Positions 10,225-64,000 of a stretch of DNA of 64,000 nucleotides are shown piece after piece. Source of the DNA: Escherichia coli. Its GTDB lineage: Bacteria > Pseudomonadota > Gammaproteobacteria > Enterobacterales > Enterobacteriaceae. Positions within the stretch are counted from its first letter, which is position 1; each line of letters starts with the position of its first letter. Both the position numbers and the translations under genes were made by a program. The DNA lies in the NCBI RefSeq assembly GCF_024502345.1, contig NZ_JALDNN010000001.1; one strand, 5' to 3'. The notes under the pieces are model-generated. The model was not told where the DNA came from. It saw only the letters and a list, made by a program, of their open reading frames with translations, and made no database searches.

Positions 10225-10708
10225 CATCACCATAATATTTCTGATACAGCGTAAACTCCGCTGTCAATCATGAGCAAAATTTACTCTGTGGCGAGATAAA
10301 ACTCCGGCCTTACCGGGTTATCCCCAAAGCAACGGCTTTTTTAACATTTGTCAAGATGAGTGATGACAGTTTTATGGCAAGAGATGCCTGTTCAGTGACT
10401 GCCATTGCATTTATCTAACCAGTTAAAAAATAAAAGATATTTCTTTGAGCCGTCTTTAACGCCAATTCGCGTGCAAGCCGCGTATTCTCTCGCTTGCCTC
10501 GTGTTTTCTAACTCTAATACACATGGTTATCCACAGGAATAGTGGATAACTGTCTCCAGCCCCTATCCCCCGCCGCCTGGGCAATTCCCACATTCGCCGC
10601 ATGAGGCGGAAGTAAAATTTTTTTCGTGATTATTTTAGAATTTAATTGGTTAAATTGCAGTCAATCGAAGACGCGATCTCGCTCGCAATTTAACCAAATA
10701 CAGGATGG

Positions 10709-14312: not shown

Positions 14313-14356
14313 GGGGCTTCTCCAAAACGTGTTTTTTGTTGTTAATTCGGTGTAGA

Positions 14357-14392
14357 CTTGTAAACCTAAATCTTTTCAATTTGGTTTACAAG
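14357..14392. promoter_or_regulatory. bioO: bio operator (BirA binding site) between divergent bioB and bioA
   Basis: Near-perfect palindrome cttgtaaacc-taaatcttttcaattt-ggtttacaag. Confidence 0.85.
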
Positions 14393-14398
14393 TCGATT

Positions 14399-15688: not shown

Positions 15689-15746
15689 CGAGAAGTCCGC
15701 GTGAGGGTTTCTGGCTACACTTTCTGCAAACAAGAAAGGAGGGTTC

Positions 15747-16223
15747 ATGAAACTCATCAGTAACGATCTGCGCGATGGCGATAAATTGCCGCATCGTCAT
15801 GTCTTTAACGGCATGGGTTACGATGGCGATAATATTTCACCGCATCTGGCGTGGGATGATGTTCCTGCGGGAACGAAAAGTTTTGTTGTCACCTGCTACG
15901 ACCCGGATGCGCCAACCGGCTCCGGCTGGTGGCACTGGGTAGTTGTTAACTTACCCGCTGATACCCGCGTATTACCGCAAGGGTTTGGCTCTGGTCTGGT
16001 AGCAATGCCAGACGGCGTTTTGCAGACGCGTACCGACTTTGGTAAAACCGGGTACGATGGCGCAGCACCGCCGAAAGGCGAAACTCATCGCTACATTTTT
16101 ACCGTTCACGCGCTGGATATAGAACGTATTGATGTCGATGAAGGTGCCAGCGGCGCGATGGTCGGGTTTAACGTTCATTTCCACTCTCTGGCAAGCGCCT
16201 CGATTACTGCGATGTTTAGTTAA
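15747..16223 (+). CDS. ybhB: PEBP-family protein YbhB
   Basis: 158 aa; CYDPDAPTGSGWWHW PEBP signature. Confidence 0.9.
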   Translation: MKLISNDLRDGDKLPHRHVFNGMGYDGDNISPHLAWDDVPAGTKSFVVTCYDPDAPTGSGWWHWVVVNLPADTRVLPQGFGSGLVAMPDGVLQTRTDFGKTGYDGAAPPKGETHRYIFTVHALDIERIDVDEGASGAMVGFNVHFHSLASASITAMFS

Positions 16224-41671: not shown

Positions 41672-41858
41672 AGATAGTCGAATGGTGGGGAAAAGTCACT
41701 CGAATTACGTATGAGATGCCGAATGCCACACTTTGCGTCTTATTCCTCCGACGTAAAGTTGTTTACGCAGCAAGCGCGGAGTATGTCATCAGGGTCAAGA
41801 ATTGAAATTGAGAGATGCCTGAATAGCAAAAAAGCGCCTTTAGGGCGCTTTTTTACAT

Positions 41859-41978
41859 TGGTGGGTCGTGCAGGATGACTCGCTTCGCTCGCCCTTCGGG
41901 CCGTCGCCGCGAGCGGCTCCGTTGTTTCGCTGCGCTCAACTCAAACCTGCTGCAGGTTCGAATCTTTGAGTATCGCAG
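41859..41978. repeat. tRNA-derived fragment block distal to lysQ
   Basis: 17 nt copy of tRNA-Lys 3' end (tggtgggtcgtgcagga) plus inverted T-arm-like gcaggttcgaatc; the 41823-41877 segment duplicates the terminator + tRNA 3' end at 41989-42031. Confidence 0.6.
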
Positions 41979-41984
41979 ATAGCA

Positions 41985-42010
41985 AAAAAGCGCCTTTAGG
42001 GCGCTTTTTT
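41985..42010 (-). terminator. Rho-independent terminator of the lysT tRNA operon
   Basis: aaaaaagcgcc-ctaa-aggcgctttttt hairpin directly 3' of last tRNA; second copy at about 41825-41850. Confidence 0.75.
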
Positions 42011-42014
42011 ACAT

Positions 42015-42090
42015 TGGTGGGTCGTGCAGGATTCGAACCTGCGACCAATTGATTAAAAGTCAACTGCTCTACCAACTGAGCTAACGACCC
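42015..42090 (-). tRNA. lysQ: tRNA-Lys (anticodon UUU)
   Basis: Exact 76 nt match to remembered E. coli tRNA-Lys incl. CCA; anticodon loop CUUUUAA. Confidence 0.95.
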
Positions 42091-42123
42091 CTTGCGGGAT
42101 TATGCTGCTTTAATCATTCAGGA

Positions 42124-42199
42124 TGGTGGGTCGTGCAGGATTCGAACCTGCGACCAATTGATTAAAAGTCAACTGCTCTACCAACTGAGCTAACGACCC
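42124..42199 (-). tRNA. lysZ: tRNA-Lys (anticodon UUU)
   Basis: Identical 76 nt tRNA-Lys copy. Confidence 0.95.
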
Positions 42200-42247
42200 A
42201 TACGGGTGTTACCTGAAAGATTTTTACTCGGGGCCAATCTTTAAGAT

Positions 42248-42323
42248 TGGTGGGTCGTGCAGGATTCGAACCTGCGACCAATTGATTAAAAGTCAACTGC
42301 TCTACCAACTGAGCTAACGACCC
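42248..42323 (-). tRNA. lysY: tRNA-Lys (anticodon UUU)
   Basis: Identical 76 nt tRNA-Lys copy. Confidence 0.95.
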
Positions 42324-42326
42324 GAG

Positions 42327-42402
42327 TGGTGGGTGATGACGGGATCGAACCGCCGACCCCCTCCTTGTAAGGGAGGTGCTCTCCCAGCTGAGCTAATCAC
42401 CC
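42327..42402 (-). tRNA. valZ: tRNA-Val (anticodon UAC)
   Basis: 76 nt match to remembered tRNA-Val(UAC); 3 nt spacer to lysY. Confidence 0.95.
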
Positions 42403-42453
42403 GATACTGCGCTAGATACTACAAACTACTTCCACCGAACCCACCGTAATTAG

Positions 42454-42529
42454 TGGTGGGTCGTGCAGGATTCGAACCTGCGACCAATTGATTAAAAGTC
42501 AACTGCTCTACCAACTGAGCTAACGACCC
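42454..42529 (-). tRNA. lysW: tRNA-Lys (anticodon UUU)
   Basis: Identical 76 nt tRNA-Lys copy. Confidence 0.95.
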
Positions 42530-42531
42530 GG

Positions 42532-42607
42532 TGGTGGGTGATGACGGGATCGAACCGCCGACCCCCTCCTTGTAAGGGAGGTGCTCTCCCAGCTGAGCTA
42601 ATCACCC
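42532..42607 (-). tRNA. valT: tRNA-Val (anticodon UAC)
   Basis: 76 nt tRNA-Val copy; 2 nt spacer to lysW. Confidence 0.95.
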
Positions 42608-42642
42608 GATACTACGCTGGATACTACAACTAACTATGTTAG

Positions 42643-42703
42643 TGGTGGGTCGTGCAGGATGACTCGACTTCGTCTCGCCCTTCGGGCCGTTGCTGATGCA
42701 ACG
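42643..42703 (-). repeat. tRNA-Lys 3'-end-derived pseudo-tRNA fragment in lysT-valT spacer
   Basis: tggtgggtcgtgcagga + tgactcg(a)cttcg(t)ctcgcccttcgggccg, near-identical to the fragment at 41859. Confidence 0.6.
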
Positions 42704-42742
42704 TTATCCTTCACGTTTTACTACCGCTTCCACCTTAGCGAT

Positions 42743-42818
42743 TGGTGGGTCGTGCAGGATTCGAACCTGCGACCAATTGATTAAAAGTCAACTGCTCTAC
42801 CAACTGAGCTAACGACCC
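42743..42818 (-). tRNA. lysT: tRNA-Lys (anticodon UUU)
   Basis: Identical 76 nt tRNA-Lys copy; first gene of operon. Confidence 0.95.
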
Positions 42819-42982
42819 ACTTTTTCGTTGCTTTCGGTTTGTTTGATATCCCGTGGCAACGGCGGCATATATTACTGATTTCAGACTTGAGCGCAACAAA
42901 AATTTCGATGTAGATCACTCAACTGCTTATGATTCGCACGACACGACCAGAAATAATGCGACTTCTGGTCGTGTGTTATGCA

Positions 42983-49190: not shown

Positions 49191-50330
49191 TTAGTACAGA
49201 GAGTGGGTGTTACGTTCAATATCTTCTTTGGTGATACGACCGAACATTTTCCAGTAACACCAGGCGGTGTAGAGCAGAATGATCGGTACCAGAACCACCG
49301 CAACCCAGGTCATGACGTTAAGCGTCAGCTGGCTGGAAGTTGCATCCCACATTGTCAGACTTGCGTTCATCATGGTGCTGGACGGCATCACAAACGGGAA
49401 CATTGCGATACCGGCTGTCAGGATGATGCAGGCCAGCGCCAGGGAGGAGAACACAAACGCCCACGCGGCTTTATCCATACGTGCAGTCAGGATGGTCAGC
49501 AGCGGCAGAACCACACCCAGTGCCGGAATAGCCCACAGAATTGGCGTGTTGTTGAAGTTAACCAGCCATGCGCCAGCTTCACGAACCACTTCTTTATTCA
49601 GTGGGTTAGAGGCTGCGTAATGGTCCATTGTCGATTTCACGACATAACCATCGATACCGTACATCACCCATACGCCAGCCAGTGCGAAACAGACCAGTGT
49701 CACCAGCGCAGCCACCTGAGCCGTTGCACGGGTACGCAGGTGCAGTTCGCCCACGGTACGCATTTGCAGATAGGTTGCGCCCTGAGTAATGATCATCCCT
49801 ACGCTCACCACGCCTGCCAGCAGGCCGAACGGGTTAAGCAACTGGAAGAAGTTACCGGTGTAGTACAGACGCAGATATTCATCAACGTTGAACGGTACGC
49901 CCTGCAACAGGTTACCGAACGCTACACCAATTACCAGCGGCGGAACGAAGCTACCAATGAAGATGCCCCAGTCCCACATGTTACGCCAGCGGGTTTCTTC
50001 AATCTTGGAGCGGTAGTCAAAACCGACCGGACGGAAGAACAAAGACGCCAGCACGAGGATCATCGCCACATAGAAGCCGGAGAACGCAGCGGCATAGACC
50101 ATCGGCCAGGCAGCAAAGAGTGCGCCGCCCGCGGTGATCAGCCAAACCTGGTTACCGTCCCAGTGTGGTGCAATGGAGTTAATCATAATTCGACGCTCGG
50201 TGTCGTTACGACCGAGGAAACGGGTGAGCATGCCCACCCCCATGTCGAAACCGTCAGTGACTGCAAAACCAATCAGCAGAACGCCAACCAGCAGCCACCA
50301 GATAAAACGCAATACTTCATAATCGATCAT
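49191..50330 (-). CDS. cydB: Cytochrome bd-I ubiquinol oxidase subunit II
   Basis: 379 aa polytopic membrane protein. Confidence 0.95.
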   Translation of the reverse strand: MIDYEVLRFIWWLLVGVLLIGFAVTDGFDMGVGMLTRFLGRNDTERRIMINSIAPHWDGNQVWLITAGGALFAAWPMVYAAAFSGFYVAMILVLASLFFRPVGFDYRSKIEETRWRNMWDWGIFIGSFVPPLVIGVAFGNLLQGVPFNVDEYLRLYYTGNFFQLLNPFGLLAGVVSVGMIITQGATYLQMRTVGELHLRTRATAQVAALVTLVCFALAGVWVMYGIDGYVVKSTMDHYAASNPLNKEVVREAGAWLVNFNNTPILWAIPALGVVLPLLTILTARMDKAAWAFVFSSLALACIILTAGIAMFPFVMPSSTMMNASLTMWDATSSQLTLNVMTWVAVVLVPIILLYTAWCYWKMFGRITKEDIERNTHSLY

Positions 50331-50345
50331 TTGACGACTCCTGTC

Positions 50346-51914
50346 TTAGCGTGCCGGCTGAGTAGTCGTGGAAGACTGCTCAAAGTGATAGCGACCGGTT
50401 TTCAGGCTGCTTGGGCCGAGGCGTGCAAACTTGAACATTAAGAACAATTCTGCCACCAGGAACAGGGTATACAGGCCGCAAATCAGCACCATTGAGAAGA
50501 TGAGATCGCCTGCGGTCAGTGACGAGTTCGCCACAGCTGTCGGCAGCACTTCACCGATAGCCCACGGTTGGCGGCCATATTCAGCCACGAACCAGCCCGC
50601 TTCTACAGCAATCCACGGCAGCGGAATACCGTACAGCGCGGCGCGCAGCAGCCATTTTTTCTCGCCAATGCGGTTGCGGATGACACTCCAGAAAGAGAGC
50701 GCGATGATTGCCAGCAGCAGGAAGCCACACGCCACCATGATACGGAACGCGAAGTACAGCGGCGCTACACGCGGAATGGAGTCTTTGGTTGCCTGTTGAA
50801 TCTGCGCTTCAGTCGCATCAGCCACGTTTGGCGTATAGCGTTTCAGCAGCAGACCGTAACCGAGGTCTTTCTTCATGCTATTGAACTGGTCACGAACTGC
50901 CTGGTCGGTAGAACCAGAACGCAGTTGCTCGAGCAGAGAGTACGCCTTCATCCCGTTACGAATGCGTTCTTCATGCTGCACCATCAGTTCTTTCAGGCCG
51001 ATAACTGGAGTATCCACGGAACGCGTTGCAATGATGCCCAGCGCGTAAGGGATCTGGATCGCAAATTTGTTCGTCTCCTCTTCCTGATCAGGAATGCCGA
51101 ACAGAGTAAAGGCAGCAGGCGCAGGTTGCGTTTCCCACTCGGCTTCAATAGCAGCCAGTTTGGTTTTCTGCACGTCGCCCATTTCGTAACCAGATTCATC
51201 ACCCAGAACAATAACAGACAGAACGGCAGCCATACCGAAGCTGGCAGCGATAGCAAAGGAGCGTTTAGCGAAGGCGAAGTCACGACCTTTCAGCATATAC
51301 CATGCGCTGATACCGAGGATGAACATCGCGCCAGTCACATAACCAGACGCTACAGTGTGAACGAATTTCACCTGAGCAACCGGGTTAAGCACCAGCTCGG
51401 AGAAGCTCACCATCTCCATACGCATAGTTTCAAAGTTGAAATCGGACGCGATTGGGTTTTGCATCCAGCCGTTCGCAACCAGAATCCACAGTGCGGACAG
51501 GTTTGAACCGAGCGCCACCAGCCAGGTGACACACATATGCTGAACTTTACCCAGACGATCCCAACCGAAGAAGAACAGACCTACAAAGGTGGATTCGAGG
51601 AAGAAGGCCATCAGACCTTCGATTGCCAGCGGCGCACCGAAGATATCCCCTACATAGTGGGAATAGTAAGACCAGTTAGTCCCGAACTGGAACTCCATGG
51701 TCAGACCGGTAGCCACACCCAGAGCGAAGTTGATACCAAACAACTTGCCCCAGAACTTGGTCATATCTTTATAAATCTGTTTGCCGGAAAGGACGTAGAC
51801 CGTTTCCATAATGGCCAGCAGGAACGCCATACCGAGCGTCAGTGGCACAAAAAGGAAGTGGTACATCGCGGTCAAGGCAAACTGTAAGCGCGACAGTTCG
51901 ACTATATCTAACAT
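50346..51914 (-). CDS. cydA: Cytochrome bd-I ubiquinol oxidase subunit I
   Basis: 522 aa from [15 protein letters not shown]. Confidence 0.95.
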
Positions 51915-52251
51915 CATGACTCCTTGCTCATCGCATGAAGACTCCGAGAGTGAACCCCGTTAGAAAGGGTCACACGCATGCCCCAATACAAAATTATTTG
52001 CTCGCCTCTATCGTTGCCATTTCATCAAAAGAGGAAAAGACAATGATAAAAAAGTTACAAATATGTTAATGAATAAACCAAATTGATCCCGTAATTATAT
52101 TACGCCGCAAAATCCTTACAATAAACAGGTTTTTATTGAGCAAATTTGCATTTTTCGACAGTGATCAATTTATAGCGAAATTGTCACGATCTCACCAATT
52201 TGATCTACGACAATTTATCGTGTTTTGCAGATTTTTTTCAAGAATTAAAAA

Positions 52252-52265
52252 TTGATTTATATCAA
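52252..52265. promoter_or_regulatory. FNR-type box in the cydA upstream region
   Basis: ttgatttatatcaa = TTGAT-N4-ATCAA about 340 bp upstream of cydA. Confidence 0.55.
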
Positions 52266-52719
52266 AACCAACCAAATATGTTAATTATGTATAAACCATA
52301 GATCATTGGTGATTTTATTGTTAATTTATTGTGAAATATTTATGCAACACAATTATTACAATGAAAAGGTATAGATAAAAAACCAGTGTTTTATTTAACA
52401 GAACCGCCCAATCAACTTTTTATAATACCAATTGATTAGAGTAGCCAATTTGTTGCTATTTTACATAACATATTTTTATCAAAGTTAATTGATTGTTGCC
52501 TTTATGAGCACCGACCGTAAGCCCGTTATGTTATTGTTTCATTAGTAATAATCACTTAAATGTATCGATGAAACAGGTATGACTTACCGGGAGTGATTGT
52601 TTCTGAGTGAACAGAGGCCACTTTCGCCTGATAAATGAAAAATGAGCGATTTTTGCAAGTTAGTTTTTCTATAGCCGAGTACGCTCAGCGCCTCGCTTGA
52701 TTACAATGAGGTTGCTGCT

Positions 52720-53664
52720 ATGAGTCCTGATAATATCGGTTCGGCTGTCAATCGCTTCTCAGGTTGGCCATCTAATGATCCTCTAAAAACAGATGAAGAA
52801 TCAATGAAATCACCCGTGACTGTGCAAGTAATAAAGATGATTGCCGCCATCCTTGACCCACATCGGATAGTCGTTGGAATTGATACACTTTATACAACGC
52901 AGCGCGAAACATTTACCTCAGAGAGTCAACAGCTCATTGAATCAGCATTGCAAACACTTCATGTGATGAATTTAAATAATCTGGAAACAAATCGCGATGA
53001 AGAAGGTCACTATCTGGCTTTTGAATATAACGTTGACACCTCTGACAGAATAACCGTTTCTGCTTATAATGAAAAAAAGCCTGGCTGCTATGGCCAATGT
53101 CTTTTAATACAGGATGACGAAACAGACTTATTTAACCTGATAAAAATTAAAATTTTCGAAGCCAGGCATAATTATGTCGCTCAATTGATGAGCGATCCGG
53201 AATTTATGTTCAAATTCAGTTATAGCGCTCAACAAAATAGATTAGAACCTCATCTTCTGGTTCCCGCTTATTTCCCTCTAAAAACAAACGAACCGGTTAC
53301 GCAAGAGGATGTACTGTTACTTTATCGTTTCTTTAAAATGAATGATGATTTTAATAAATTAACATCAGAGGAATACATGAGTATCATGACTCCTCTGATG
53401 AAGTGTGAGCGTAGCGTCCACGACAACAACAGGTATGTGACGGGCAAAGATACCCATCTTCTGGACTATCCTCCTTCTGGTAACCAGATACATTTCCATA
53501 TTTTTCCTGACGAATCAGCAACACTAGTCCTTTATTTTTCAAACAATGACCTTGAATGTTTCGTCTTTGAAAGAGATATTCCTAGCCAGTATCGCTTTTT
53601 CAAAATGTTTACCAATCTGGCACTGGTTATAGATCAGTTAACCGAAGCCAATAAAATACTTTAA
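52720..53664 (+). CDS. Hypothetical protein (314 aa), AT-rich accessory gene, no recognised domain
   Basis: Intact ORF with SD (gagg) 9 nt upstream; visibly AT-rich codon usage; no TM segment, signal peptide or P-loop; Ser/Asn/Pro-rich N-terminus. Confidence 0.6.
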   Translation: MSPDNIGSAVNRFSGWPSNDPLKTDEESMKSPVTVQVIKMIAAILDPHRIVVGIDTLYTTQRETFTSESQQLIESALQTLHVMNLNNLETNRDEEGHYLAFEYNVDTSDRITVSAYNEKKPGCYGQCLLIQDDETDLFNLIKIKIFEARHNYVAQLMSDPEFMFKFSYSAQQNRLEPHLLVPAYFPLKTNEPVTQEDVLLLYRFFKMNDDFNKLTSEEYMSIMTPLMKCERSVHDNNRYVTGKDTHLLDYPPSGNQIHFHIFPDESATLVLYFSNNDLECFVFERDIPSQYRFFKMFTNLALVIDQLTEANKIL

Positions 53665-53744
53665 TTTTCTATATATCCCTATGGCAAATATTGCTAAACA
53701 ATGCCTGGGGATTAATTTTTATTACTCACGGAAAGATTTAAATA

Positions 53745-54167
53745 ATGATACCATCTCAGATCTCTTTCAATACCCTTCCAGTCAATGCAACATACGCTTC
53801 AGAGACAACAGTTGACACACAAAAATTCTCTGACATCCTCTACTCAGCGGGGTGTTCCCTAAAGGATATGGCTTATCTGAGCAGATGTCTGGCATCAATA
53901 CACCCGACTCTCGCCAAAAACATTTATGAAACAGAAAATCTCAGCGATCAAAAATTACTGCATATTGATTGCCGTAGTACAAATGACATCAAGATAAATA
54001 TCTTTTTTGGTCAGCAACGAGAAGGATTAATTGAAATTAGTTCTGACACAGTTATTTTTTCGATACTGTCTTCATTGATTGACTCCGCCATTTCTAAATT
54101 TCAACATCAAAACCCCGTTAACGGTTCAGTTAATCCTGAACTATTGTATAAGGATTATACTGATTAA
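53745..54167 (+). CDS. Hypothetical protein (140 aa), AT-rich accessory gene, no recognised domain
   Basis: Intact ORF 80 bp downstream of the 314 aa ORF, same strand, SD-like ggaaag; Ser/Thr/Asn-rich N-terminus. Confidence 0.55.
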   Translation: MIPSQISFNTLPVNATYASETTVDTQKFSDILYSAGCSLKDMAYLSRCLASIHPTLAKNIYETENLSDQKLLHIDCRSTNDIKINIFFGQQREGLIEISSDTVIFSILSSLIDSAISKFQHQNPVNGSVNPELLYKDYTD

Positions 54168-54714
54168 ACCCACCCAGTCGCGAAAAATGGCCTGCGTTAT
54201 TGCCAGACGTAATAAAACCGTTGATTAACGTTACTCATACTGGTAGCACCTTCATGTACCTCTCTTTTTTACGAAAAATCAAAAGAGCTAACTAAGGTCA
54301 TAATTCGCATGAATCATTAACCATTTGTTATTTTCAACATTATTTTTACATTAAGCAGAAATGAATTGCAGTGAAATTCGACTTAAATCTTATGAAATGC
54401 ATTTACTCATGGCTAAAACCACGTCACAAAAATGCAAATTAGAAGTAGATCACAATTATCTCAATACATTAAATCAAGTTAATTTTAAAAATTTAACATT
54501 CATGTCATTAGTTGACATAACACACTGAATTAACATGGAAATTTAAAAACACACTTTAAACAATCATTTCCCGAAAGACATTTTGAAAATAGATCAATTG
54601 CAACATTACGGTCAGATAAAGACACTCCTGTGATATTAAACCTGTGCCGTTATGAACGGCCATAAATACGACGTGTGTAACTTATTTTACTCTCTGTCTT
54701 ACAAAGGATTACCC

Positions 54715-55164
54715 ATGAAGAAAGCAACACTTGTGATTGGCGTTATTGGCGCGGACTGCCATGCAGTAGGCAATAAAGTTCTGGACCGCGTTTTTAGCAA
54801 CCACGACTTCAGAGTCATTAATCTGGGCGTAATGGTCAGCCAGGACGAATATATTGATGCTGCCATCGAAACTGGCGCTGACGCGATTATCGTCTCCTCT
54901 ATCTATGGGCATGGCGATATCGACTGTCTGGGCATGCGCGAACGCTGCATCGAGCGTGGACTGGGTGACATCCTCCTCTATGTGGGCGGTAACCTGGTGG
55001 TCGGAAAACATGACTTCGCTGACGTGGAAACCAAGTTCAAAGAGATGGGATTTGATCGCGTCTTTGCCCCAAGTCATGACTTAGAAGATGTTTGTCAGCT
55101 GATGGCCCACGATATCAATCAACGTCATGACGTTGATACTCGTATTCTTGAAGAGGCTATCTGA
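54715..55164 (+). CDS. glmS: Glutamate mutase sigma subunit (B12-binding)
   Basis: Cobalamin-binding DxHxxG motif ([10 protein letters not shown]); close match to remembered Clostridium GlmS/MutS; start at MKKATLVIG. Not the GlcN-6-P synthase glmS. Confidence 0.88.
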
Positions 55165-56552
55165 TGCAAATCGTCTCTGTCGATATTGGATCGACGTGGA
55201 CCAAAGCTGCCCTCTTCACCCGGGAGGGGGACGCGTTAACGTTGGTTAACCACGTACTGACCCCAACCACCACCCATCATCTGGCGAAGGGGTTTTTCTC
55301 CAGCCTGAACCAGGTGTTAAACGTAGATAATGCCCTCCCCCTGTTAAACAGCGGTGAGGTTGCATTGAAGTATTCCTCCTCTGCCAAAGGTGGGCTGGCG
55401 GTTGCCGCAATGGGATTGGTGCCTTCTATCACCCTGGAAACCGCGAAAGTAACCGCTCACTCTGCGGGGGCTAAAATTGCGCAATATTACGCCTACAAGC
55501 TGAACCGCCGTGATATCCAGGCACTGGAAGAAACGCAGCCCGATATTCTCTTGTTCACCGGCGGCACCGACGGCGGAGAAGAAAGCTACGGACTGAATAA
55601 CGCCCGTGTGCTGGCAGAATCCAAACTCGACTGCGCCATTATTTATGCCGGAAACCGGGATATTCAGGACGAGGTGCAGGAGATCCTCGGGCATAAAGAC
55701 CTGACCATCGTCGACAATGTTCTGCCCGATCTTGACCATCCGAACCCTTTAGCCGCACGCCAGGCTATTTGCGACATATTCCTTAAACGCATCGTTAAAG
55801 GGAAAGGGCTGGATGTCATTGTTGATAAAACAGGCGAAGAACCAATGCCGACACCATGGACGGTCTTTGAACTGGTCAAGGCAATCAGTAACGTCGATCA
55901 CAGCTGGAAAGAGTTCATGCTGATCGACATGGGCGGCGCAACCACCGATGTTTATTCCGCCGGTGCCAACACGCTCTCGCCCGACACCGTTTTACACGGC
56001 GTACCGGAACCCTTCGTAAAACGGACGGTGGAAGGCGATCTGGGAATGCGCGTCTCGGCAGTGGTGGTTGGTGAAAGTGCGAAAGAGTTAGTCAATGTGA
56101 ATTTTGCTCAGCAACCCGCACAGCTGGACGCTTTTTATCATTACCTCCGTCATCTAGTCGCTCATCCCGACTACTTACCCGCAAATGCAGAAGAGAAATA
56201 TTTCGATACCGTCCTGGCCGGACTGTGTGTGGGTTATGCCACCGAAAGACATGCGGGCACCAAAAAAGAGGTCTGCACCTGCGTCGGCAATGTCGATTTA
56301 CAGATGGGACGTGACCTGACAACCGTGCGTAAAGTCGTCGGATCCGGCGGATGGCTCTCGCGTGCCAGTCAGTTCGATATGCATCACTGGTTGAAATACC
56401 GCGAGTTAAACGACGACGGTAAACGCATTCTCTTACCGACCGAATTTGAATATTACCGCGATTCCCGGGGGCTATTACCACTGCTGGCAAACGTCGCCAG
56501 AGTCGATCCGCTGGCCGCCGCGCGCACCAGTATTCAATGCTTAACCCTATAA
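55164..56552 (+). CDS. glmL: Glutamate mutase-associated protein GlmL/MutL (actin-like ATPase fold)
   Basis: 462 aa; N-terminal VDIGSTWTKAALF phosphate-1 motif; sits between S and E subunit genes; ATGA overlap with glmS. Confidence 0.8.
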   Translation: MQIVSVDIGSTWTKAALFTREGDALTLVNHVLTPTTTHHLAKGFFSSLNQVLNVDNALPLLNSGEVALKYSSSAKGGLAVAAMGLVPSITLETAKVTAHSAGAKIAQYYAYKLNRRDIQALEETQPDILLFTGGTDGGEESYGLNNARVLAESKLDCAIIYAGNRDIQDEVQEILGHKDLTIVDNVLPDLDHPNPLAARQAICDIFLKRIVKGKGLDVIVDKTGEEPMPTPWTVFELVKAISNVDHSWKEFMLIDMGGATTDVYSAGANTLSPDTVLHGVPEPFVKRTVEGDLGMRVSAVVVGESAKELVNVNFAQQPAQLDAFYHYLRHLVAHPDYLPANAEEKYFDTVLAGLCVGYATERHAGTKKEVCTCVGNVDLQMGRDLTTVRKVVGSGGWLSRASQFDMHHWLKYRELNDDGKRILLPTEFEYYRDSRGLLPLLANVARVDPLAAARTSIQCLTL

Positions 56553-56570
56553 CAATTAAGGCTGCAATCA

Positions 56571-58016
56571 ATGGAACTTCGAAATAAGAAATTAACCCAT
56601 GACGAATTCATGACCGAGCGGCAACAGGTACTGAAAACCTGGGAAACCGGCAAGGATGTTGAAAACTTTGAAGATGGCGTTAAATACCAACAAAACATTC
56701 CTGAGCATAAACGCTTCTCTCATGCCCTGCTGAAAGCAGACAAGGAAGGTAAAACCCTTAGCCAACCGCGCGCAGGTGTGGCGCTGATGGACGAACACAT
56801 CGAACTGCTGAAAACACTACAAGAAGAGTGCGATCTGCTGCCAAGCACCATCGATGCATATACCCGTCTGAATCGGTACGAAGAAGCGGCTGTAGGGATT
56901 AAAAAATCCATCGAAGCCGGAACCTCTAAACTGAACGGTTTACCGGTAGTTAACCATGGTGTCGCAGCTTGCCGTCGCCTCACCGAAACCCTGCAAAAAC
57001 CGCTACAGATCCGCCACGGCACGCCAGATGCGCGTCTGCTGGCTGAAATCTCAATGGCCAGCGGCTTTACCAGTTATGAAGGCGGTGGCATTTCCTACAA
57101 CATTCCGTATGCCAAACGTGTAACGCTGGAAAAATCGATCCGCGACTGGCAGTACTGCGACCGTTTAATGGGGATGTACGAAGAACACGGGATCCGCATC
57201 AACCGCGAACCGTTTGGCCCACTAACGGGTACGCTGATCCCGCCGTTTATCTCGCACTCTATCGCGATAATCGAAGGCTTGCTGGCGCTGGAACAGGGTG
57301 TGAAATCTATCACCGTTGGTTATGGCCAGGTCGGCAGCCTGACGCAGGATGTTGCGGCGATCCAGTCTCTGCGTGAACTTGCACACGAATACTTTCAGAG
57401 CTATGGCTATACCGACTATGAATTAAGTACCGTGTTTCACCAGTGGATGGGCGGCTTTCCGGAAGACGAATCGAAAGCGTTCGCTATTATCTCCTGGGGC
57501 GCAGCCGTCGCGGGGATGTCTGGTGCCACCAAACTCATCACCAAAAGTCCGCACGAAGCCTGGGGCATTCCGACTGCCGCTGCCAACATTCAGGGGCTGA
57601 AAGCCTCCCGCCAGATGCTCAACATGGTCAATGAGCAGAAATTCCCGCCGTGCCCTGCGGTTGAACTGGAAATTGAACTGATTAAGAGCGAGGTTCGCGC
57701 AGTACTGAATAAAGTGTTCGAACTGGGTAATGGTGATATTGCGCGCGGAACGGTGCTGGCATTTGAAGCGGGCGTACTGGATGTGCCGTTTGCGCCAGCC
57801 GCCTGCAACGCGGGCAAAATTCTTCCGGTCCGTGACAACACCGGCGCGATACGCGTACTGGAAGCCGGAGCCGTTCCATTGCCAAAAGATATTCTCGACC
57901 TCCACCACGATTACGTTGCGGAACGCGCACGCTGTGAAGGACGCCAACCGACATTCCAGATGGTTGTAGATGACATCAATGCTGTATCCCACAGTAAATT
58001 AATAGGAAGACCATAA
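56571..58016 (+). CDS. glmE: Glutamate mutase epsilon (catalytic) subunit
   Basis: 481 aa; extensive identity to remembered Clostridium GlmE (LPSTIDAYTR, HGTPD, VFHQWMGGFP, KTPHEA). Confidence 0.9.
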   Translation: MELRNKKLTHDEFMTERQQVLKTWETGKDVENFEDGVKYQQNIPEHKRFSHALLKADKEGKTLSQPRAGVALMDEHIELLKTLQEECDLLPSTIDAYTRLNRYEEAAVGIKKSIEAGTSKLNGLPVVNHGVAACRRLTETLQKPLQIRHGTPDARLLAEISMASGFTSYEGGGISYNIPYAKRVTLEKSIRDWQYCDRLMGMYEEHGIRINREPFGPLTGTLIPPFISHSIAIIEGLLALEQGVKSITVGYGQVGSLTQDVAAIQSLRELAHEYFQSYGYTDYELSTVFHQWMGGFPEDESKAFAIISWGAAVAGMSGATKLITKSPHEAWGIPTAAANIQGLKASRQMLNMVNEQKFPPCPAVELEIELIKSEVRAVLNKVFELGNGDIARGTVLAFEAGVLDVPFAPAACNAGKILPVRDNTGAIRVLEAGAVPLPKDILDLHHDYVAERARCEGRQPTFQMVVDDINAVSHSKLIGRP

Positions 58017-59257
58017 TGAAAATAAAACAGGCCCTGTTCACCGCTGGCTATTCCTCATTCTATTTCGATGACCAGCAGGCGATAAAAAACGGAGCGGGTC
58101 ATGACGGCTTTTTTTATACCGGGGAGCCGGTAACACAGGGGTTTAACGCCGTTCGTCAGGCCGGGGAGTGCGTATCGGTACAGTTGATTCTGGAAAACGG
58201 CGCGGTCGCCGTAGGTGACTGTACTGCCGTACAGTATTCCGGGGCAGGCGGTCGCGATCCACTGTTCCTCGCAGAGCACTTTATTCCGTTCCTCAACGAC
58301 CATATCAAGCCATTACTGGTAGGCCGCGATGTGGATGCTTTCCTGCCGAATGCCCGTTTCTTCGACAAATTGCGTATTGACGGCAACTTGCTGCATACCG
58401 CCGTGCGCTACGGATTATCACAGGCGCTGCTTGATGCTACCGCGCTGGCAACCGGCCGTCTGAAAACTGAAGTGGTCTGTGATGAATGGCAGTTGCCACG
58501 CGTGGCGGAATCCATTCCATTATTTGGTCAGAGCGGCGACGATCGATATATCGCCGTCGATAAGATGATCCTTAAAGGCATCGACGTGCTGCCCCATGCG
58601 CTGATTAATAACGTCGAAGAGAAGCTGGGCTTTAAAGGTGAAAAACTGCGCGAATATGTCCACTGGCTGTCGGATCGCATTCTGAGCAAGCGCACCAGCG
58701 CACGCTACCACCCAACCCTGCACATCGATGTATACGGCACTATCGGTCTGATCTTCGATATGGATCCGCTTCGCTGTGCGCAATACATCGCCAGCCTGGA
58801 AAAAGAAGCGCAAGGCCTGCCGCTCTACATCGAAGGGCCGGTCGATGCCGGTAACAAGCCCGATCAAATTCGCCTGCTGACCGCGATTACCAAAGAGCTG
58901 ACGCGCCTCGGTTCCGGCGTGAAAATTGTGGCCGATGAATGGTGTAACACCTACCAGGATATTGTTGATTTCACTGATGCTGCCAGTTGTCACATGGTGC
59001 AAATCAAAACCCCGGATCTGGGCAGTATTCACAACATCGTCGATGCGGTTCTTTACTGCAACAGCCACAGCATGGAAGCGTACCAGGGCGGCACCTGCAA
59101 TGAAACTGATGTCAGTGCCCGCACCTGTGTCCACGTCGCCCTTGCCGCTCGCCCTATGCGTATGCTGGTAAAACCAGGGATGGGCTTTGACGAAGGCCTC
59201 GATATCGTCTTCAACGAAATGAATCGTACTATCGCGCTGTTGCAGGCTAAGGATTAA
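58016..59257 (+). CDS. mal: 3-methylaspartate ammonia-lyase
   Basis: 413 aa; enolase-superfamily; strong identity to remembered Clostridium MAL (GAGHDGF, VQYSGAGGRDPLFLA, HMVQIKTPDLG); ATGA overlap with glmE. Confidence 0.92.
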   Translation: MKIKQALFTAGYSSFYFDDQQAIKNGAGHDGFFYTGEPVTQGFNAVRQAGECVSVQLILENGAVAVGDCTAVQYSGAGGRDPLFLAEHFIPFLNDHIKPLLVGRDVDAFLPNARFFDKLRIDGNLLHTAVRYGLSQALLDATALATGRLKTEVVCDEWQLPRVAESIPLFGQSGDDRYIAVDKMILKGIDVLPHALINNVEEKLGFKGEKLREYVHWLSDRILSKRTSARYHPTLHIDVYGTIGLIFDMDPLRCAQYIASLEKEAQGLPLYIEGPVDAGNKPDQIRLLTAITKELTRLGSGVKIVADEWCNTYQDIVDFTDAASCHMVQIKTPDLGSIHNIVDAVLYCNSHSMEAYQGGTCNETDVSARTCVHVALAARPMRMLVKPGMGFDEGLDIVFNEMNRTIALLQAKD

Positions 59258-59260
59258 CAA

Positions 59261-60631
59261 ATGGCTCGTTCTTTTAAAGTCTTATCGCCAACGGCAATCC
59301 TCGGGTATGGATTCCCGGAAGAGAGCTTCCGCAAAGCGATGGCAGAATCGCCCGATCTGATCGCCGTTGATGCAGGCTCTTCCGATCCAGGCCCCCACTA
59401 CCTCGGGGCAGGCAAACCGTTTACCGATCGCGCAGGGGTCAAGCGCGATCTGCGCTATATGATCACCGCAGGCGTGCAAAATAATATACCGGTGGTGATC
59501 GGAACGGCTGGCGGTTCTGGTGCCGCACCACACCTGGAGTGGTGCCGAGAAATAATTCATGAGATTGCCCGGGAAGAGCACCTCTCGTTCTCGATGGCGC
59601 TGATCCCGGCAGACGTTGACAAAGCCATCGTCCACCAGGCGCTGGATAACGGCAAAATCACGGCGCTGGAGTTTGTCCCGCCGTTAACCCACGACGCGAT
59701 TGACGAAAGTACGTATATCGTCGCGCAAATGGGCATCGAACCCTTCCAGCGTGCGCTAAAAGAAGGCGCGCAAGTGGTGCTGGGTGGGCGCGCTTACGAC
59801 CCGGCCTGCTTTGCTGCGCTACCGATCATGCAAGGCTTTGATGAAGGTCTGGCGCTGCATTGTGGGAAAATCCTTGAGTGCGCAGCAATCGCCGCAACGC
59901 CCGGCTCAGGCTCTGACTGTGCGATGGGCATCATTGATGACAACGGCTTTACGCTGAAGACATTTAATCCGAAGCGTAAATTTACCGAAACGTCAGCAGC
60001 TGCACACACACTGTATGAGAAATCCGATCCTTACTTCCTGCCAGGACCTGGCGGCGTGTTGAATCTGAAAGGCTGCACATTTAAAGCGGTCAATAACGGC
60101 GAAGTGTACGTCAGCGGTTCTAAGCATGAAGAAACGCCGTATGCCCTGAAACTGGAAGGTGCACGACGGGTGGGCTTCCGCTGTCTGACCATCGCCGGAA
60201 CGCGCGACCCGATTATGATCGCCGGGATCGATAAAATCATCGATGAAGTCAAAACCAGCGTTTCGCGTAACCTGTCGCTCGACGATGACAGCATTCGCAT
60301 CAATTTCCACCTGTACGGCAAAAACGGGGTGATGGGAGACCATGAACCGATGCAAACTGCCGGGCATGAGCTGGGGATTGTCCTTGATGTAGTTGCACCG
60401 ACCCAGGAAATTGCCAACAGCGTTTGCTCGCTGGTGCGCTCTACCATGCTGCACTACGGCTATGAAAACCGCATCGCTACCGCAGGCAATCTGGCGTTCC
60501 CGTTCTCCCCTTCTGATATCCAGGGCGGGCCGGTATACGAATTTTCCATATATCACCTGATTGAAGCCAACGACGCTCTGCGTTTTGATTTCCATATTGA
60601 ACAGGTGACGCCAGAAGGAGTTCAGGCATGA
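59261..60631 (+). CDS. DUF1446 (AtuA N-terminal domain-like) protein of unknown function
   Basis: 456 aa ORF 4 nt after mal; family assignment from memory, not searched. Confidence 0.7.
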   Translation: MARSFKVLSPTAILGYGFPEESFRKAMAESPDLIAVDAGSSDPGPHYLGAGKPFTDRAGVKRDLRYMITAGVQNNIPVVIGTAGGSGAAPHLEWCREIIHEIAREEHLSFSMALIPADVDKAIVHQALDNGKITALEFVPPLTHDAIDESTYIVAQMGIEPFQRALKEGAQVVLGGRAYDPACFAALPIMQGFDEGLALHCGKILECAAIAATPGSGSDCAMGIIDDNGFTLKTFNPKRKFTETSAAAHTLYEKSDPYFLPGPGGVLNLKGCTFKAVNNGEVYVSGSKHEETPYALKLEGARRVGFRCLTIAGTRDPIMIAGIDKIIDEVKTSVSRNLSLDDDSIRINFHLYGKNGVMGDHEPMQTAGHELGIVLDVVAPTQEIANSVCSLVRSTMLHYGYENRIATAGNLAFPFSPSDIQGGPVYEFSIYHLIEANDALRFDFHIEQVTPEGVQA

Positions 60632-60945
60632 AACAGTCAATTGTCTCACTGGCGCAAGTCATTCGTTCGAAAAATGCCGGACCTTACGAACTGGTTTTAG
60701 ATATTTTATTTAAAACGAAAGAAAACTATGAGCGAGTTAAATCATCAGGGCAATTAACCCCAGAACTGATTGCGCGCTTATATCATGTTGAACCTGACTT
60801 TATTCATCGTATTGTCTGGTTTGATCCTTCTAACGCAGTAAAAATCGTCATGCCACGAGATATTATCTCCGGGAATGTAGGTGACAATGATGTCTATGGT
60901 GCACAGCAACATGCACCTTTATTAAATATGAGTTTCGATTTGTAA
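60628..60945 (+). CDS. DUF4387 (AtuA C-terminal domain-like) small protein
   Basis: 105 aa ORF overlapping preceding ORF by 4 nt (ATGA); family assignment from memory. Confidence 0.65.
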   Translation: MKQSIVSLAQVIRSKNAGPYELVLDILFKTKENYERVKSSGQLTPELIARLYHVEPDFIHRIVWFDPSNAVKIVMPRDIISGNVGDNDVYGAQQHAPLLNMSFDL

Positions 60946-61028
60946 AAATCCGAATACTTTTAGCCAACTGACATCCCGTCACTTATTACAGTTCAACACT
61001 TCAGCTATTTGTAAGGTTGTAATAGCAG

Positions 61029-61060
61029 GTAGATGCCTGAATCTCTATTCAGGCATCTAC
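61029..61060 (+). terminator. Inverted repeat / possible attenuator between DUF4387 gene and transporter gene
   Basis: gtagatgcctgaatctctattcaggcatctac perfect 14 bp stem; no clean U-tract. Confidence 0.4.
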
Positions 61061-61084
61061 TTCTCCTGATTCTGATTTATCGCC

Positions 61085-61378
61085 GTGCACCTGATGGAGG
61101 AAAAAATGAAGAAAATAAGTTTAACCACGATGATTCTTTTGGCGCTGGTACTTGGAATGATTATCGGCGTAGTGCTCAATAACACTGTTTCACCGGAAAC
61201 AGCAAAACTCTATGCGCAAGAAATATCGATATTCACGACGATTTTCTTACGACTGATAAAAATGATTATCGCTCCGTTAGTGGTCTCTACCCTGGTGGTA
61301 GGTATTGCTAAAATGGGAGATGCCAAAGCCCTTGGTCGTATTTTTTCTAAAACACTCTTTTTATTTATTTGCGCCTCA
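61085..61378 (+). pseudogene. 5' fragment (98 codons) of a DAACS-family (GltP/DctA-like) dicarboxylate/amino acid:cation symporter gene, truncated by IS1
   Basis: [30 protein letters not shown] matches the GltP N-terminal signature; reading frame runs into IS1 and stops after 8 IS1-encoded codons. Confidence 0.85.
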
Positions 61379-61433
61379 GGTGATGCTGCCAACTTACTGA
61401 TTTAGTGTATGATGGTGTTTTTGAGGTGCTCCA

Positions 61434-61709
61434 GTGGCTTCTGTTTCTATCAGCTGTCCCTCCTGTTCAGCTACTGACGGGGTGGTGCGTAACGGCAAAA
61501 GCACCGCCGGACATCAGCGCTATCTCTGCTCTCACTGCCGTAAAACATGGCAACTGCAGTTCACTTACACCGCTTCTCAACCCGGTACGCACCAGAAAAT
61601 CATTGATATGGCCATGAATGGCGTTGGATGCCGGGCAACCGCCCGCATTATGGGCGTTGGCCTCAACACGATTTTCCGCCATTTAAAAAACTCAGGCCGC
61701 AGTCGGTAA
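61434..61709 (+). CDS. insA: IS1 protein InsA
   Basis: 91 aa; zinc-finger CPSC..CSHC; matches remembered InsA. Confidence 0.95.
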
Positions 61710-62131
61710 CCTCGCGCATACAGCCGGGCAGTGACGTCATCGTCTGCGCGGAAATGGACGAACAGTGGGGATACGTCGGGGCTAAATCGCGCCAGCGCTG
61801 GCTGTTTTACGCGTATGACAGGCTCCGGAAGACGGTTGTTGCGCACGTATTCGGTGAACGCACTATGGCGACGCTGGGGCGTCTTATGAGCCTGCTGTCA
61901 CCCTTTGACGTGGTGATATGGATGACGGATGGCTGGCCGCTGTATGAATCCCGCCTGAAGGGAAAGCTGCACGTAATCAGCAAGCGATATACGCAGCGAA
62001 TTGAGCGGCATAACCTGAATCTGAGGCAGCACCTGGCACGGCTGGGACGGAAGTCGCTGTCGTTCTCAAAATCGGTGGAGCTGCATGACAAAGTCATCGG
62101 GCATTATCTGAACATAAAACACTATCAATAA
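61628..62131 (+). CDS. insB: IS1 transposase InsB (expressed as InsAB' by -1 frameshift)
   Basis: 167 aa ORF in -1 frame relative to insA. Confidence 0.93.
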
Positions 62132-62146
62132 GTTGGAGTCATTACC

Positions 62147-62555
62147 AATCGCCGTTATTAGCTAAAGAATGAATATTAACAATAATATCGGGATGTAACT
62201 TTGTGAATTCATGTAAATTTGGGATTAACCAGTGGGTACTAAAAGTAGGATTAACGGCAAGTTCAATAACCTGAACCGTAGGCTGCCAGGTCATAATGGT
62301 ATTGGTATCGCGTTCCAGCTTATTTAATGTTTCTTTTACTATCCCCAGGTAATACTTCCCTGCATCATTAAGAAAAATGCGTTTTTTAGAGTGTGAAAAT
62401 AACGGAGTACGTAAAAATTCCTCCAGCGCACTTACTTGTCTGAATACTGCACTTTGGGTTAACGCTAACTCCTCTGCCGCTCTGGTATAACTTTCATGAC
62501 GTGCGACGACCTCAAAAGTCACCAGCAGTTCCGTTTTAGGTATTTTCCCTCGCAT
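62147..62555 (-). pseudogene. LysR-family regulator, 3'-truncated by IS1 (only about 135 N-terminal codons remain)
   Basis: LysR HTH (TFEVVARHESYTRAAEELALTQSAVFRQVSALE); last codon and stop are supplied by the IS1 end. Confidence 0.85.
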
Positions 62556-63118
62556 AATGCCGTCCCTTAAAAATAGTTTAAACCATCAAAAATACATTAC
62601 TTATTACGAAGTAATGGTAACAAAGCAGCAATAAATAATTTATAAGAATCATGATTGACATTTATAAACCAGTAAGGCTGGCGTGACAAATATCTTAATC
62701 AGATAATAATAATCCGAAAAGCACAGCGCCTTTCGAATTATCCGGAATCACATTAAGTGAAAATTATTAAATTGATATCATTTATCATATCTGTGGATAT
62801 TATGATAAACAATCAACAAAGATTTTATTTTTGATTTATAGCATATCCATCTAAGAATTTTTGCGATGCTGCAATATCCGGGGTAAAGACCCGATCCTGG
62901 CTGACAAATGGCACGACTTGACGAAAAGCGGTGAACATCGCTTTTGTTGATTTACTTAACGCTACGGTCAAACGCTGGGAAGCCAGTGCATCAGGTAACG
63001 ATTCGAAATTCGCCGTCGTTCTTATTCGTGGCTTGCGGTCGGTCGCGGCAATCCACAGTGGCTGTGGTCATGCAGTCAAGCCTGCAGTCAGATTTCGACC
63101 GTGGTTAACCGTTTAAGG

Positions 63119-63220
63119 TATAAAAAAGGCCATCATACGATGGCCAACCATGTCGAAACCGACAGCCCTTCGCCATTCCTGTAGAGGGAAGCGGCGAGGG
63201 CTATTTCTTATTACAGATAT
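63119..63220 (-). ncRNA. sdhX: sucD 3'UTR with terminator; expected location of 3'UTR-derived sRNA SdhX
   Basis: Immediately after sucD stop; ends in hairpin ggccatcgtatgatggcc + T6; SdhX is reported to derive from the sdh-suc operon 3' end. Confidence 0.55.
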
Positions 63221-64000
63221 TTATTTCAGAACAGTTTTCAGTGCTTCACCGATATCCGCCAGGCTGCGAACGGTTTTCACGCCTGCGGCTTCCAGAGCAG
63301 CGAATTTCTCATCCGCAGTCCCTTTCCCACCGGCAATGATGGCACCCGCGTGGCCCATACGTTTGCCTTTCGGCGCAGTCACACCAGCGATGTAACCCAC
63401 AACTGGCTTGGTAACGTGCTCTTTGATGTACGCAGCTGCTTCTTCTTCAGCGCTACCGCCGATCTCACCGATCATCACGATCGCTTCGGTCTGCGGATCT
63501 TTTTCGAACATTTCGAGAATGTCGATAAAGTTAGAGCCAGGGATCGGGTCACCGCCGATACCGACACAGGTCGACTGACCGAAACCGTAATCCGTGGTCT
63601 GTTTAACCGCTTCATAGGTCAGTGTACCGGAACGGGAAACGATACCCACTTTACCCGGTTTGTGAATGTGACCCGGCTGGATACCGATTTTGCATTCACC
63701 CGGAGTGATAACGCCCGGGCAGTTCGGGCCGATCATACGAACGCCGGCTTCGTCCAGTTTCACTTTCACAGTCAGCATATCCAGCGTCGGGATGCCTTCA
63801 GTGATGGTGATAATCAGTTTGATGCCTGCATCAATAGCTTCCAGAATGGAGTCTTTGCAGAACGGTGCTGGTACGTAGATAACAGAAGCGGTAGCGCCAG
63901 TAGCAGCAACAGCTTCACGCACGGTGTTGAACACCGGCAGGCCGAGGTGGGTAGTACCGCCTTTACCTGGGGTTACGCCGCCAACCATTTTAGTGCCGTA
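63221..64000 (-). CDS. sucD: Succinyl-CoA synthetase alpha subunit, 5'-partial (start beyond window end)
   Basis: Frame open to window edge; matches remembered SucD through C-terminal ..ALKTVLK. Confidence 0.95.

Follow-up and report, generated by a model that had tools for sequence, protein, structure and literature searches.

A truncated copy of the O157:H7 methylaspartate-pathway cluster in the sucD-cydA interval of an Escherichia coli genome

Between the core genes cydA and sucD, the Escherichia coli contig NZ_JALDNN010000001.1 (assembly GCF_024502345.1) carries genes for glutamate mutase and 3-methylaspartate ammonia-lyase at the place where K-12 has mngR, mngA, and mngB, its genes for mannosylglycerate utilization. 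We analyzed a stretch of 64,000 nucleotides of this contig (hereafter the window, whose coordinates are used throughout) with a focus on the interval 52291-63121. A first-pass annotation, made from the letters alone, had read the interval as an accessory island that replaced the K-12 genes. Our comparisons point with high probability to a truncated copy of the methylaspartate-pathway cluster already known from O157:H7 strains.

In K-12 MG1655, the gene order is sucD-SdhX-mngR-mngA-mngB-cydA, as the first-pass annotation had stated it. When window positions 50000-64000 were compared by blastn with the K-12 stretch, homology was limited to 50372-52290 (cydA with 373 bp upstream of it) and 63122-64000 (SdhX and sucD). 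This leaves 10,831 bp, positions 52291-63121, with no K-12 counterpart; the K-12 equivalent measures 5,936 bp. The reported absence of mngRAB was borne out as well, since tblastn with MngR, MngA, and MngB gave no match within the 64-kb window. On the cydA side, the core flank is cydA itself (50346-51917, minus strand; 100% to Sakai CydA by tblastn, with DNA 99-100% identical to K-12 until ~51750). On the other side lies the SdhX small RNA and sucD terminator (63120-63220, minus strand), a hairpin at 63145-63128 followed by a T-run. The right boundary had been placed correctly at 63120, which is the last base of this T-run; K-12 homology resumes at 63122, equivalent to position 3149 of the K-12 stretch (L003) and inside sdhX annotated there at 3051-3151. 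The left boundary had been set at the first open reading frame (ORF), near 52700, about 400 bp inside the true limit of 52291.

All of the gene content listed from the letters is present: two orphan ORFs, the glm-mal genes, a DUF1446/DUF4387 pair, a transporter fragment, an IS1, and a truncated LysR gene. Next to cydA lies extended cydA-glmS intergenic DNA (52291-52555) that is absent from K-12 and whose homology to Escherichia sp. E1V33 (L011) and to a B2-like E. coli genome (NZ_OZ040091.1, L104) runs to 52555. It is followed by an AT-rich orphan module (52556-54308, plus strand), an insertion relative to the cydA-glmS spacer of E1V33. The module contains orf314 (52720-53664, plus strand) and orf140 (53745-54167, plus strand), neither with a recognizable protein family. 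The region directly upstream of glmS (54309-54714), the presumed operon promoter, is homologous to the corresponding DNA of E1V33 and, in short stretches, also to that of Citrobacter, Salmonella, and Klebsiella.

Six genes, all full length, follow on the plus strand. GlmS, GlmL, GlmE, and Mal were identified by curated NCBIfam equivalogs, each scoring over its curated cut-off. They comprise the B12-binding subunit S of glutamate (methylaspartate) mutase (glmS, 54715-55164; NF002612/TIGR01501, E = 1e-74 to 1e-76), the mutase accessory or reactivating protein (glmL, also called mutL, 55164-56552; TIGR01319 and NF040745), mutase subunit E (glmE, 56571-58016; TIGR01503, E = 2e-260), and 3-methylaspartate ammonia-lyase (mal, 58016-59257; TIGR01502, E = 5e-163, 542.7 bits against a cut-off of 286). 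The mechanical ORF of glmS begins at 54652 (170 aa). Because alignment to the family profiles starts only at residue 22-24 and the RefSeq protein has 149 aa, the annotated start at 54715 is the likely one. GlmS is 99.3% identical to the Sakai protein (tblastn), and the ORFs for GlmS, GlmE, and GlmL have the same lengths as those of Sakai. The last two genes of the six encode an AtuA/DUF1446 protein (59261-60631; Pfam AtuA PF07287) and a DUF4387 protein (60628-60945; Pfam PF14330, E = 3e-39) that overlap by 4 bp and are identified below as the citramalate lyase subunits cmlA and cmlB.

The remaining features are a mobile element and two gene remnants. The 5' 273 nt (91 of 426 codons) of a gltP-like glutamate/aspartate symporter gene occupy 61106-61378 on the plus strand (NF008440 GltP, E = 2e-20, profile positions 4-88). 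They are followed by a 768-bp IS1 at 61379-62146, plus strand, 99.9% identical to the annotated IS1B of strain 14EC033. On the minus strand at 62147-62555 are the 5' 409 nt (136 of 301 codons) of a lysR gene, whose product aligns with the LysR-family profile at positions ~3-140 only and is 98.5% identical to residues 1-137 of Sakai ECs_0755.

The AT-richness of the orphans relative to the glm-mal genes was noted in the first pass, and this contrast is real: orf314 has 38% GC and orf140 36%, against 50-55% for glmS to the AtuA gene (values from the Sakai copy, with which the window profile agrees). No clean two-block pattern emerges, though, as the DUF4387 gene (38%), lysR (44.5%), and intergenic stretches (32-41%) are AT-rich too. 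A scan of 51800-64000 with Rfam at an E-value threshold gave no match, with no B12 riboswitch before glmS; SdhX also went undetected in that scan. Consensus scans for promoters and terminators returned counts at shuffle level, including the region upstream of glmS, and only the sucD/SdhX terminator was convincing.

The alignment with O157:H7 established what the cluster is. The window is 99.0% identical to and colinear with Sakai (L001) over 50000-61378 and 62147-64000, with the IS1 between; these stretches run from cydB to base 61378 and from 62147 to sucD and correspond to ECs_0767 to ECs_0755. Locus, gene order, orphan ORFs, and the hutH and rtcB relics described below are all shared with Sakai ECs0755-ECs0767, at 99% nucleotide identity. 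By megablast, 1,118 of 5,426 complete E. coli genomes matched at least 80% of the query; identity was 99.0% for O157:H7 and O55:H7. The cluster was published by Kronen and Berg in 2015 (PLoS One; PMC4682846) as GlmS-MutL-GlmE-Mal-DUF1446-...-GltP-FumD-CobA-LTTR, which many Enterobacteriaceae and roughly one in four E. coli possess, and the mesaconase/fumarase activity of FumD (ECs0757) was demonstrated in that work. The feature is thus already known, and nothing about it is novel in kind. Searches of the literature found no EDL933 O-island number or Z/ECs locus tags for it, and no paper linking mngRAB, cydA, and methylaspartate.

In the intact cluster, GlmS and GlmE would form an adenosylcobalamin-dependent glutamate mutase that, with the accessory protein GlmL, converts glutamate to 3-methylaspartate. 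Mal would release ammonia from this compound to give mesaconate, FumD would hydrate mesaconate to (S)-citramalate, and CmlA and CmlB would split citramalate into pyruvate and acetate. The set would be completed by a transporter resembling GltP, by CobO, a cob(I)alamin adenosyltransferase, and by a regulator of the LysR type.

The last of these steps was the one whose substrate fate had been left open (PMC4682846). The AtuA-like protein of the window matches chain A of PDB entries 9ERQ and 9EVF over its full length (E = 8e-292, ~92% identity), a chain deposited as 'Citramalate lyase, subunit A (cmlA)', and the DUF4387 protein corresponds to chain B, 'Citramalate lyase, subunit B (cmlB)', likewise over its full length (E = 5e-57). 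The cmlAB genes of Raoultella planticola (a gift of the Berg laboratory) are employed in a 2026 preprint as a lyase for splitting citramalate directly into pyruvate and acetate (bioRxiv 10.64898/2026.01.16.699985). The gap left by Kronen and Berg therefore appears to be closed, and because the AtuA/DUF4387 pair matches CmlA/CmlB, the intact cluster is predicted to encode the whole route from glutamate to pyruvate and acetate. dN/dS of cmlA is 0.03-0.12. RefSeq names the two proteins 'AtuA family' and 'DUF4387', and the Sakai records ECs_0760 and ECs_0759 carry the labels '3-methylaspartate ammonia-lyase' and 'acyl-CoA synthetase'.

The clostridial cluster of C. tetanomorphum and C. tetani (glmS-mutL-glmE-mal-mesAB-citDEF-like lyase; PMC4682846) has the same first two enzymes as the window, a B12-dependent glutamate mutase with MutL/GlmL and methylaspartase, and both pathways share the overall chemistry from glutamate to pyruvate and acetate. 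They differ in the later steps, where the enterobacterial version employs the single-chain class I fumarase FumD in place of clostridial MesAB, and an AtuA/DUF4387-type CmlAB lyase (PDB 9ERQ/9EVF) in place of a citrate-lyase-like CitDEF complex. Unlike in the clostridial cluster, the hydratase step is deleted in the window. The methylaspartate cycle of haloarchaea converts mesaconate to mesaconyl-CoA for acetate assimilation (PMC5592240); the window lacks the CoA-transferase and hydratase genes of that cycle, and its CmlAB pair suggests that citramalate is cleaved directly.

What distinguishes the window from the Sakai cluster is a loss of 3,910 bp. The intact IS1 stands exactly where Sakai positions 11981-15890 (L001) are missing: colinearity with gltP (ECs_0758) stops at 61378, and the lost segment comprises the 3' 79% of gltP, all of fumD (ECs_0757; L001 13096-14748), all of cobO (ECs_0756), and the 3' 55% of lysR. 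A tblastn search with FumD found no match in the window. The element has the IS1 ORFs 61434-61709 and 61628-62131 and the ends GGTGATGCTGCCAACTTACTGAT and GTTGGAGTCATTACC. The 9-mers on its two sides, TGCGCCTCA and AATCGCCGT, differ, so there is no 9-bp target-site duplication and the IS1 is not a simple insertion.

Adjacent deletions are classical behavior of IS1 in E. coli. The window shows nothing unusual by this standard, with an intact 768-bp element kept at the junction and no target duplication, as expected of an IS1-mediated adjacent deletion or, equally well, of recombination between two directly repeated IS1 copies; the two look alike here. It would be far-fetched, by contrast, to take the IS1 as a simple insertion and the missing 3.9 kb as lost in an unrelated event or never present in the lineage. 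Simple insertion does occur in this gene neighborhood, at another position of lysR in strain 2018-05-2CC, and Escherichia sp. E1V33 naturally lacks gltP and cobO. However, both end-points of the deletion coincide exactly with the IS1 ends, and the gltP and lysR fragments that were kept are 98.5-99% identical to the O157 genes and cut mid-gene. An analogous IS1-bounded deletion, with other end-points on both sides, is found in 14EC033. In 23CRST031, nearly the whole cluster is gone between IS903B and IS1, and IS activity at the locus is recurrent.

The right IS1 junction of the window occurs in no complete RefSeq E. coli genome. For the left junction, 14EC033 alone gave a match, which was first taken as shared and then discarded, as it consists of two pieces 198 bp apart and represents a different junction. 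Exact copies of both fusion ORFs that span the junctions are found in the draft assembly GCA_050022275.1 and also in human-gut metagenome contigs, in the same samples, which shows that the truncated variant exists and circulates. Among complete E. coli genomes such truncation is rare, as 1,127 have the deleted segment and 1,135 the glmS-cmlB core; ~99% of those with the cluster keep the segment. The pathway copy of this strain is a rare degenerate form.

Across E. coli haplotypes, dN/dS of glmS to cmlB is 0.01-0.17, and the cluster is thus normally under purifying selection. In the window, the pathway is probably silent or leaky, to judge from its gene content. The truncated LysR lacks the effector-binding domain. 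Hydration of mesaconate would depend on the housekeeping fumarases FumA and FumB, whose catalytic efficiency with mesaconate is 4% and 19%, respectively, of that with fumarate (PMC4682846), adenylation of coenzyme B12 would depend on BtuR, and glutamate uptake would fall to other transporters.

The history of the interval was approached through other arrangements of the locus. Among complete E. coli genomes, mngRAB was found in 3,887, the cluster core in 1,135, and rtcB at this locus in 301. K-12 mngRAB lies in the same sucD-cydA interval and meets the same SdhX-terminator junction as the window, but the two modules are not alleles of each other, as both occur in F9792 and WCHEC000837, in the order cydA-orphans-cluster-rtcB-mngB-mngA-mngR-sucD, with rtcB between them. 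Of the rtcB region that marks this combined arrangement, at least 80% is matched in about 145 complete genomes, an upper bound of which two were verified directly. In HB42 and EC19 (stretches L008, L009, and L010, with HB42 as L009), the order is cydA-orphans-cluster-hutH-hutG-hutI-hutD-permease-hutU-rtcB-sucD. The hut genes, which lead from histidine to glutamate, there stand beside the methylaspartate cluster, an arrangement suggestive of one continuous path that leads from histidine by way of glutamate to pyruvate and acetate.

Traces of the hut and rtcB genes persist in the window between the lysR fragment and sucD. Two hutH-like histidine ammonia-lyase relics lie at 62828-63016 on the minus strand (tblastn; blastn to HB42). 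One, at 62965-62828, matches residues 511-556, the last 46 codons, at 85% amino acid identity (E = 2e-23), and the other, at 63016-62957, matches residues 378-397 at 90%. Two rtcB relics, an internal piece and the 3' end, follow at 63022-63118 on the plus strand and match HB42 (L009) at 12233-12289 (89%) and from 12465 onward (96%) by blastn, or RtcB residues ~377-398 and 451-462 by tblastn. The rtcB pieces reach exactly to the SdhX terminator, and O157 Sakai has these hutH and rtcB relics as well. Given these relics in 62556-63121, the O157-type arrangement, including that of the window, would descend by deletions from a form that had hut and rtcB, with rtcB abutting sucD.

A relic of the opposite kind was found in the B2-like genome NZ_OZ040091.1, which has the order sucD-mngRAB-TPR gene-cydA. 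Its DNA upstream of cydA is homologous to the window until 52555 and then passes into a glmS relic (76% nucleotide identity; 35 aa at E = 1e-5). This genome has evidently lost the cluster. In this stretch (L104 9159-11050), the TPR gene between mngB and cydA encodes a 397-aa tetratricopeptide-repeat protein, and the glmS relic adjoins the cydA upstream region.

We then surveyed other genera by scanning one genome per species for GlmE and mapping the hits by tblastn. The gene order beside cydA proved to be shared by Citrobacter spp., Klebsiella oxytoca, Salmonella enterica subsp. arizonae, Pseudescherichia vulneris, two further Escherichia species, and an Enterobacteriaceae metagenome-assembled genome. 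Counted by genus, the cluster lies beside cydA in six, with sucD opposite in the five loci whose retrieved flank extends that far. Its protein identities track those of CydA and SucD: GlmE is 97% identical in E1V33, 90-92% in Citrobacter, Salmonella, and Klebsiella, and 83% in P. vulneris, where CydA is 100%, 93-97%, and 89% identical, respectively. For Yersinia and Morganella, GlmE identity is 80-83%, and in Morganella, Yersinia, Hafnia, and Budvicia the cluster does not adjoin cydA. In Citrobacter sedlakii NBRC 105722 (L023), mngB-mngA-mngR stands between cydA and glmS, opposite to its side in F9792. Since mngRAB flanks opposite sides of the cluster in these two genomes, the order of the modules has changed at least once.

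The two orphan ORFs do not share this distribution. Cluster copies from other genera all lack them, as does Escherichia sp. E1V33, and orf140 has relatives only in E. coli, Shigella dysenteriae, and E. albertii. No family was found for either in Pfam, NCBIfam, PADLOC, or PHROGs. Searches for remote homologues among 5.8e9 and 1.84e9 proteins returned only near-identical or fragmentary relatives, and in the 1.84 billion representative proteins only fragments of the same orphan protein. An AlphaFold2 model from a four-sequence alignment had a mean pLDDT of 48, too low to be of use. dN/dS is ~0.5 for orf314 and ~0.2 for orf140, which suggests weak constraint. A repeat search around the module gave short chance matches only. 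The orphan segment is present in 1,138 of 5,426 complete E. coli genomes and the glm core in 1,135, which are counts and not a set overlap. A contig resembling E. albertii (L100, Logan SRR11658232; ~88% nucleotide identity) has an orf314 homologue (63% amino acid identity) and an orf140 pseudogene between cydA and sucD but no glm cluster. The pair is evidently a separate, Escherichia-only module with its own history. In the same sucD-cydA interval of that contig, at 9907-10683, lies an unrelated 258-aa ORF with a hydrophobic, signal-peptide-like start and no Pfam match, which may encode an outer-membrane protein.

Upstream of cydA, the window carries a diverged allele of the cydA regulatory region (51918-52290), 79% identical to K-12 over 373 bp, 100% identical to Sakai and F9792, and 96% to E1V33. 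From the tol genes through cydB-cydA, the window and K-12 agree at 99-100%, with a drop at ~51750; a comparison of E. coli with Salmonella, Citrobacter, or Klebsiella gives values like the 79% upstream of cydA. The diverged spacers are interspersed with conserved blocks, TTGAT-N4-ATCAA-like motifs among them, and the regulatory logic of cydA is therefore probably kept. E. coli evidently has two deeply diverged cydAB promoter alleles. Matching between K-12 and F9792 likewise decays at the 3' end of mngB, down to 78-87%, and the K-12-type mngB-cydA junction is apparently an old or a foreign haplotype, for which reason strict vertical descent is not claimed. The 470 bp of K-12 that separate mngB from the shared cydA upstream region (L003 8613-9085; 770613-771084) hold REP-like palindromic sequence and no relic of the cluster, and this stretch is missing from B2-like genomes. 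Elsewhere in the window, a tRNA array of the lysT-valT-lysW type (41800-42820) gave many internal repeat matches against K-12, and its copies appear to be arranged differently from those in K-12.

We therefore read the interval 52291-63121 as a truncated copy of the known cluster within an old mosaic interval, crippled by an IS1-linked deletion and not a new island, and give this reading a probability of roughly 85%. The interval would have comprised the Escherichia-only orphans, the glm-mal cluster, hut genes, rtcB, and mngRAB, of which different lineages deleted different modules, and the lineage of the window would derive from a form with hut and rtcB next to sucD. An old interval of many modules, eroded differently in each lineage, is probably the most economical account, although we infer the direction of evolution; the cluster is probably ancestral at the locus and lost elsewhere. 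The first-pass annotation proposed a horizontally acquired island with at least two layers of acquisition that displaced mngR-mngAB in one replacement event, and this we regard as very improbable. The proposal can draw on the absence of the cluster from K-12 and from 79% of complete E. coli genomes, on the heterogeneous composition, and on the orphan pair being a truly distinct Escherichia-only module. The part of it that concerns a separate history of the orphans stands, with their absence outside Escherichia and from E1V33 and the orf314 homologue in a contig that lacks the glm cluster. Recent acquisition of the glm-mal block probably does not, in view of the same locus in several genera with divergence at the level of species, the identities that follow CydA and SucD, and the glmS, hutH, and rtcB relics. 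Replacement holds only as a comparison with K-12, since F9792 and WCHEC000837, and perhaps as many as ~145 genomes, have cluster and mngRAB together. Features of a mobile island are also wanting: there is no tRNA in 50000-64000, no integrase among the ORFs, and no flanking repeat beyond short, chance-level ones, and the sole mobile element, the IS1, lies inside the interval and not at its ends.

A different explanation keeps the cluster old in the family but has it re-imported here by homologous recombination through the cydA and sucD flanks, overwriting a K-12-like mngRAB haplotype. We hold this to be unlikely, if worth serious attention. The abrupt drop in identity at ~51750, to 79% upstream of cydA, is what a recombination breakpoint would produce, the background is K-12-like while the cluster is 99% O157-like, and the decay at the 3' end of mngB between K-12 and F9792 is similar. 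On the other hand, the allele linked to the cluster is the Escherichia-like one (96% to E1V33) and the K-12 allele is about equally far from all genera compared (71-80%), so that if one haplotype was imported it may be that of K-12; moreover, protein identity to the sampled donors outside Escherichia does not exceed 85-92%. Several observations nevertheless weigh against the mosaic, crippled-copy reading that we prefer. Import by homologous recombination would also fit the presence of the cluster in only 21% of complete E. coli genomes, and import via conserved flanks would fit the 21% difference between the cluster-linked cydA upstream allele and that of K-12. With mngRAB on the other side of the cluster in C. 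sedlakii, no single ancestral order fits all arrangements. No conditions for expression of the intact O157 cluster were found, nor growth supported by glutamate (PMC4682846), and at the level of sequence a crippled cluster and one that was already silent look alike. Lastly, mngRAB or a second fumD could lie in the genome beyond the 64-kb window.

Three points were missing from the first-pass annotation, namely the identity with the O157:H7 cluster, the IS1-linked deletion of 3.9 kb, and the structure deposited as citramalate lyase for the DUF1446/DUF4387 pair. They bring no major change to current understanding. The useful outcomes are the re-annotation of CmlAB, by which the AtuA/DUF4387 pair, mislabelled in the Sakai record, becomes a citramalate lyase, a history of the locus based on relics, and the divergent cydA promoter alleles. 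For comparative genomics, the locus is a caution that differences from K-12 are not always acquired islands; here K-12 has probably lost DNA. A wider proposition, which we advance tentatively and at somewhat less than even odds, is that sucD-cydA is an ancient, family-wide metabolic hot spot in which the cluster is ancestral and the K-12 state derived, accompanied by two cydAB promoter alleles that differ by ~21%. If so, one promoter allele would be linked to the cluster and the other to the K-12-type mngB-cydA junction, and the alleles, or the adjoining orf314 and orf140, could affect the regulation of cytochrome bd-I or hold an unrecognized function. The adjacency of the cluster and the hut genes in some E. 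coli would extend the catabolic route further, and this may matter for colonization of the gut.

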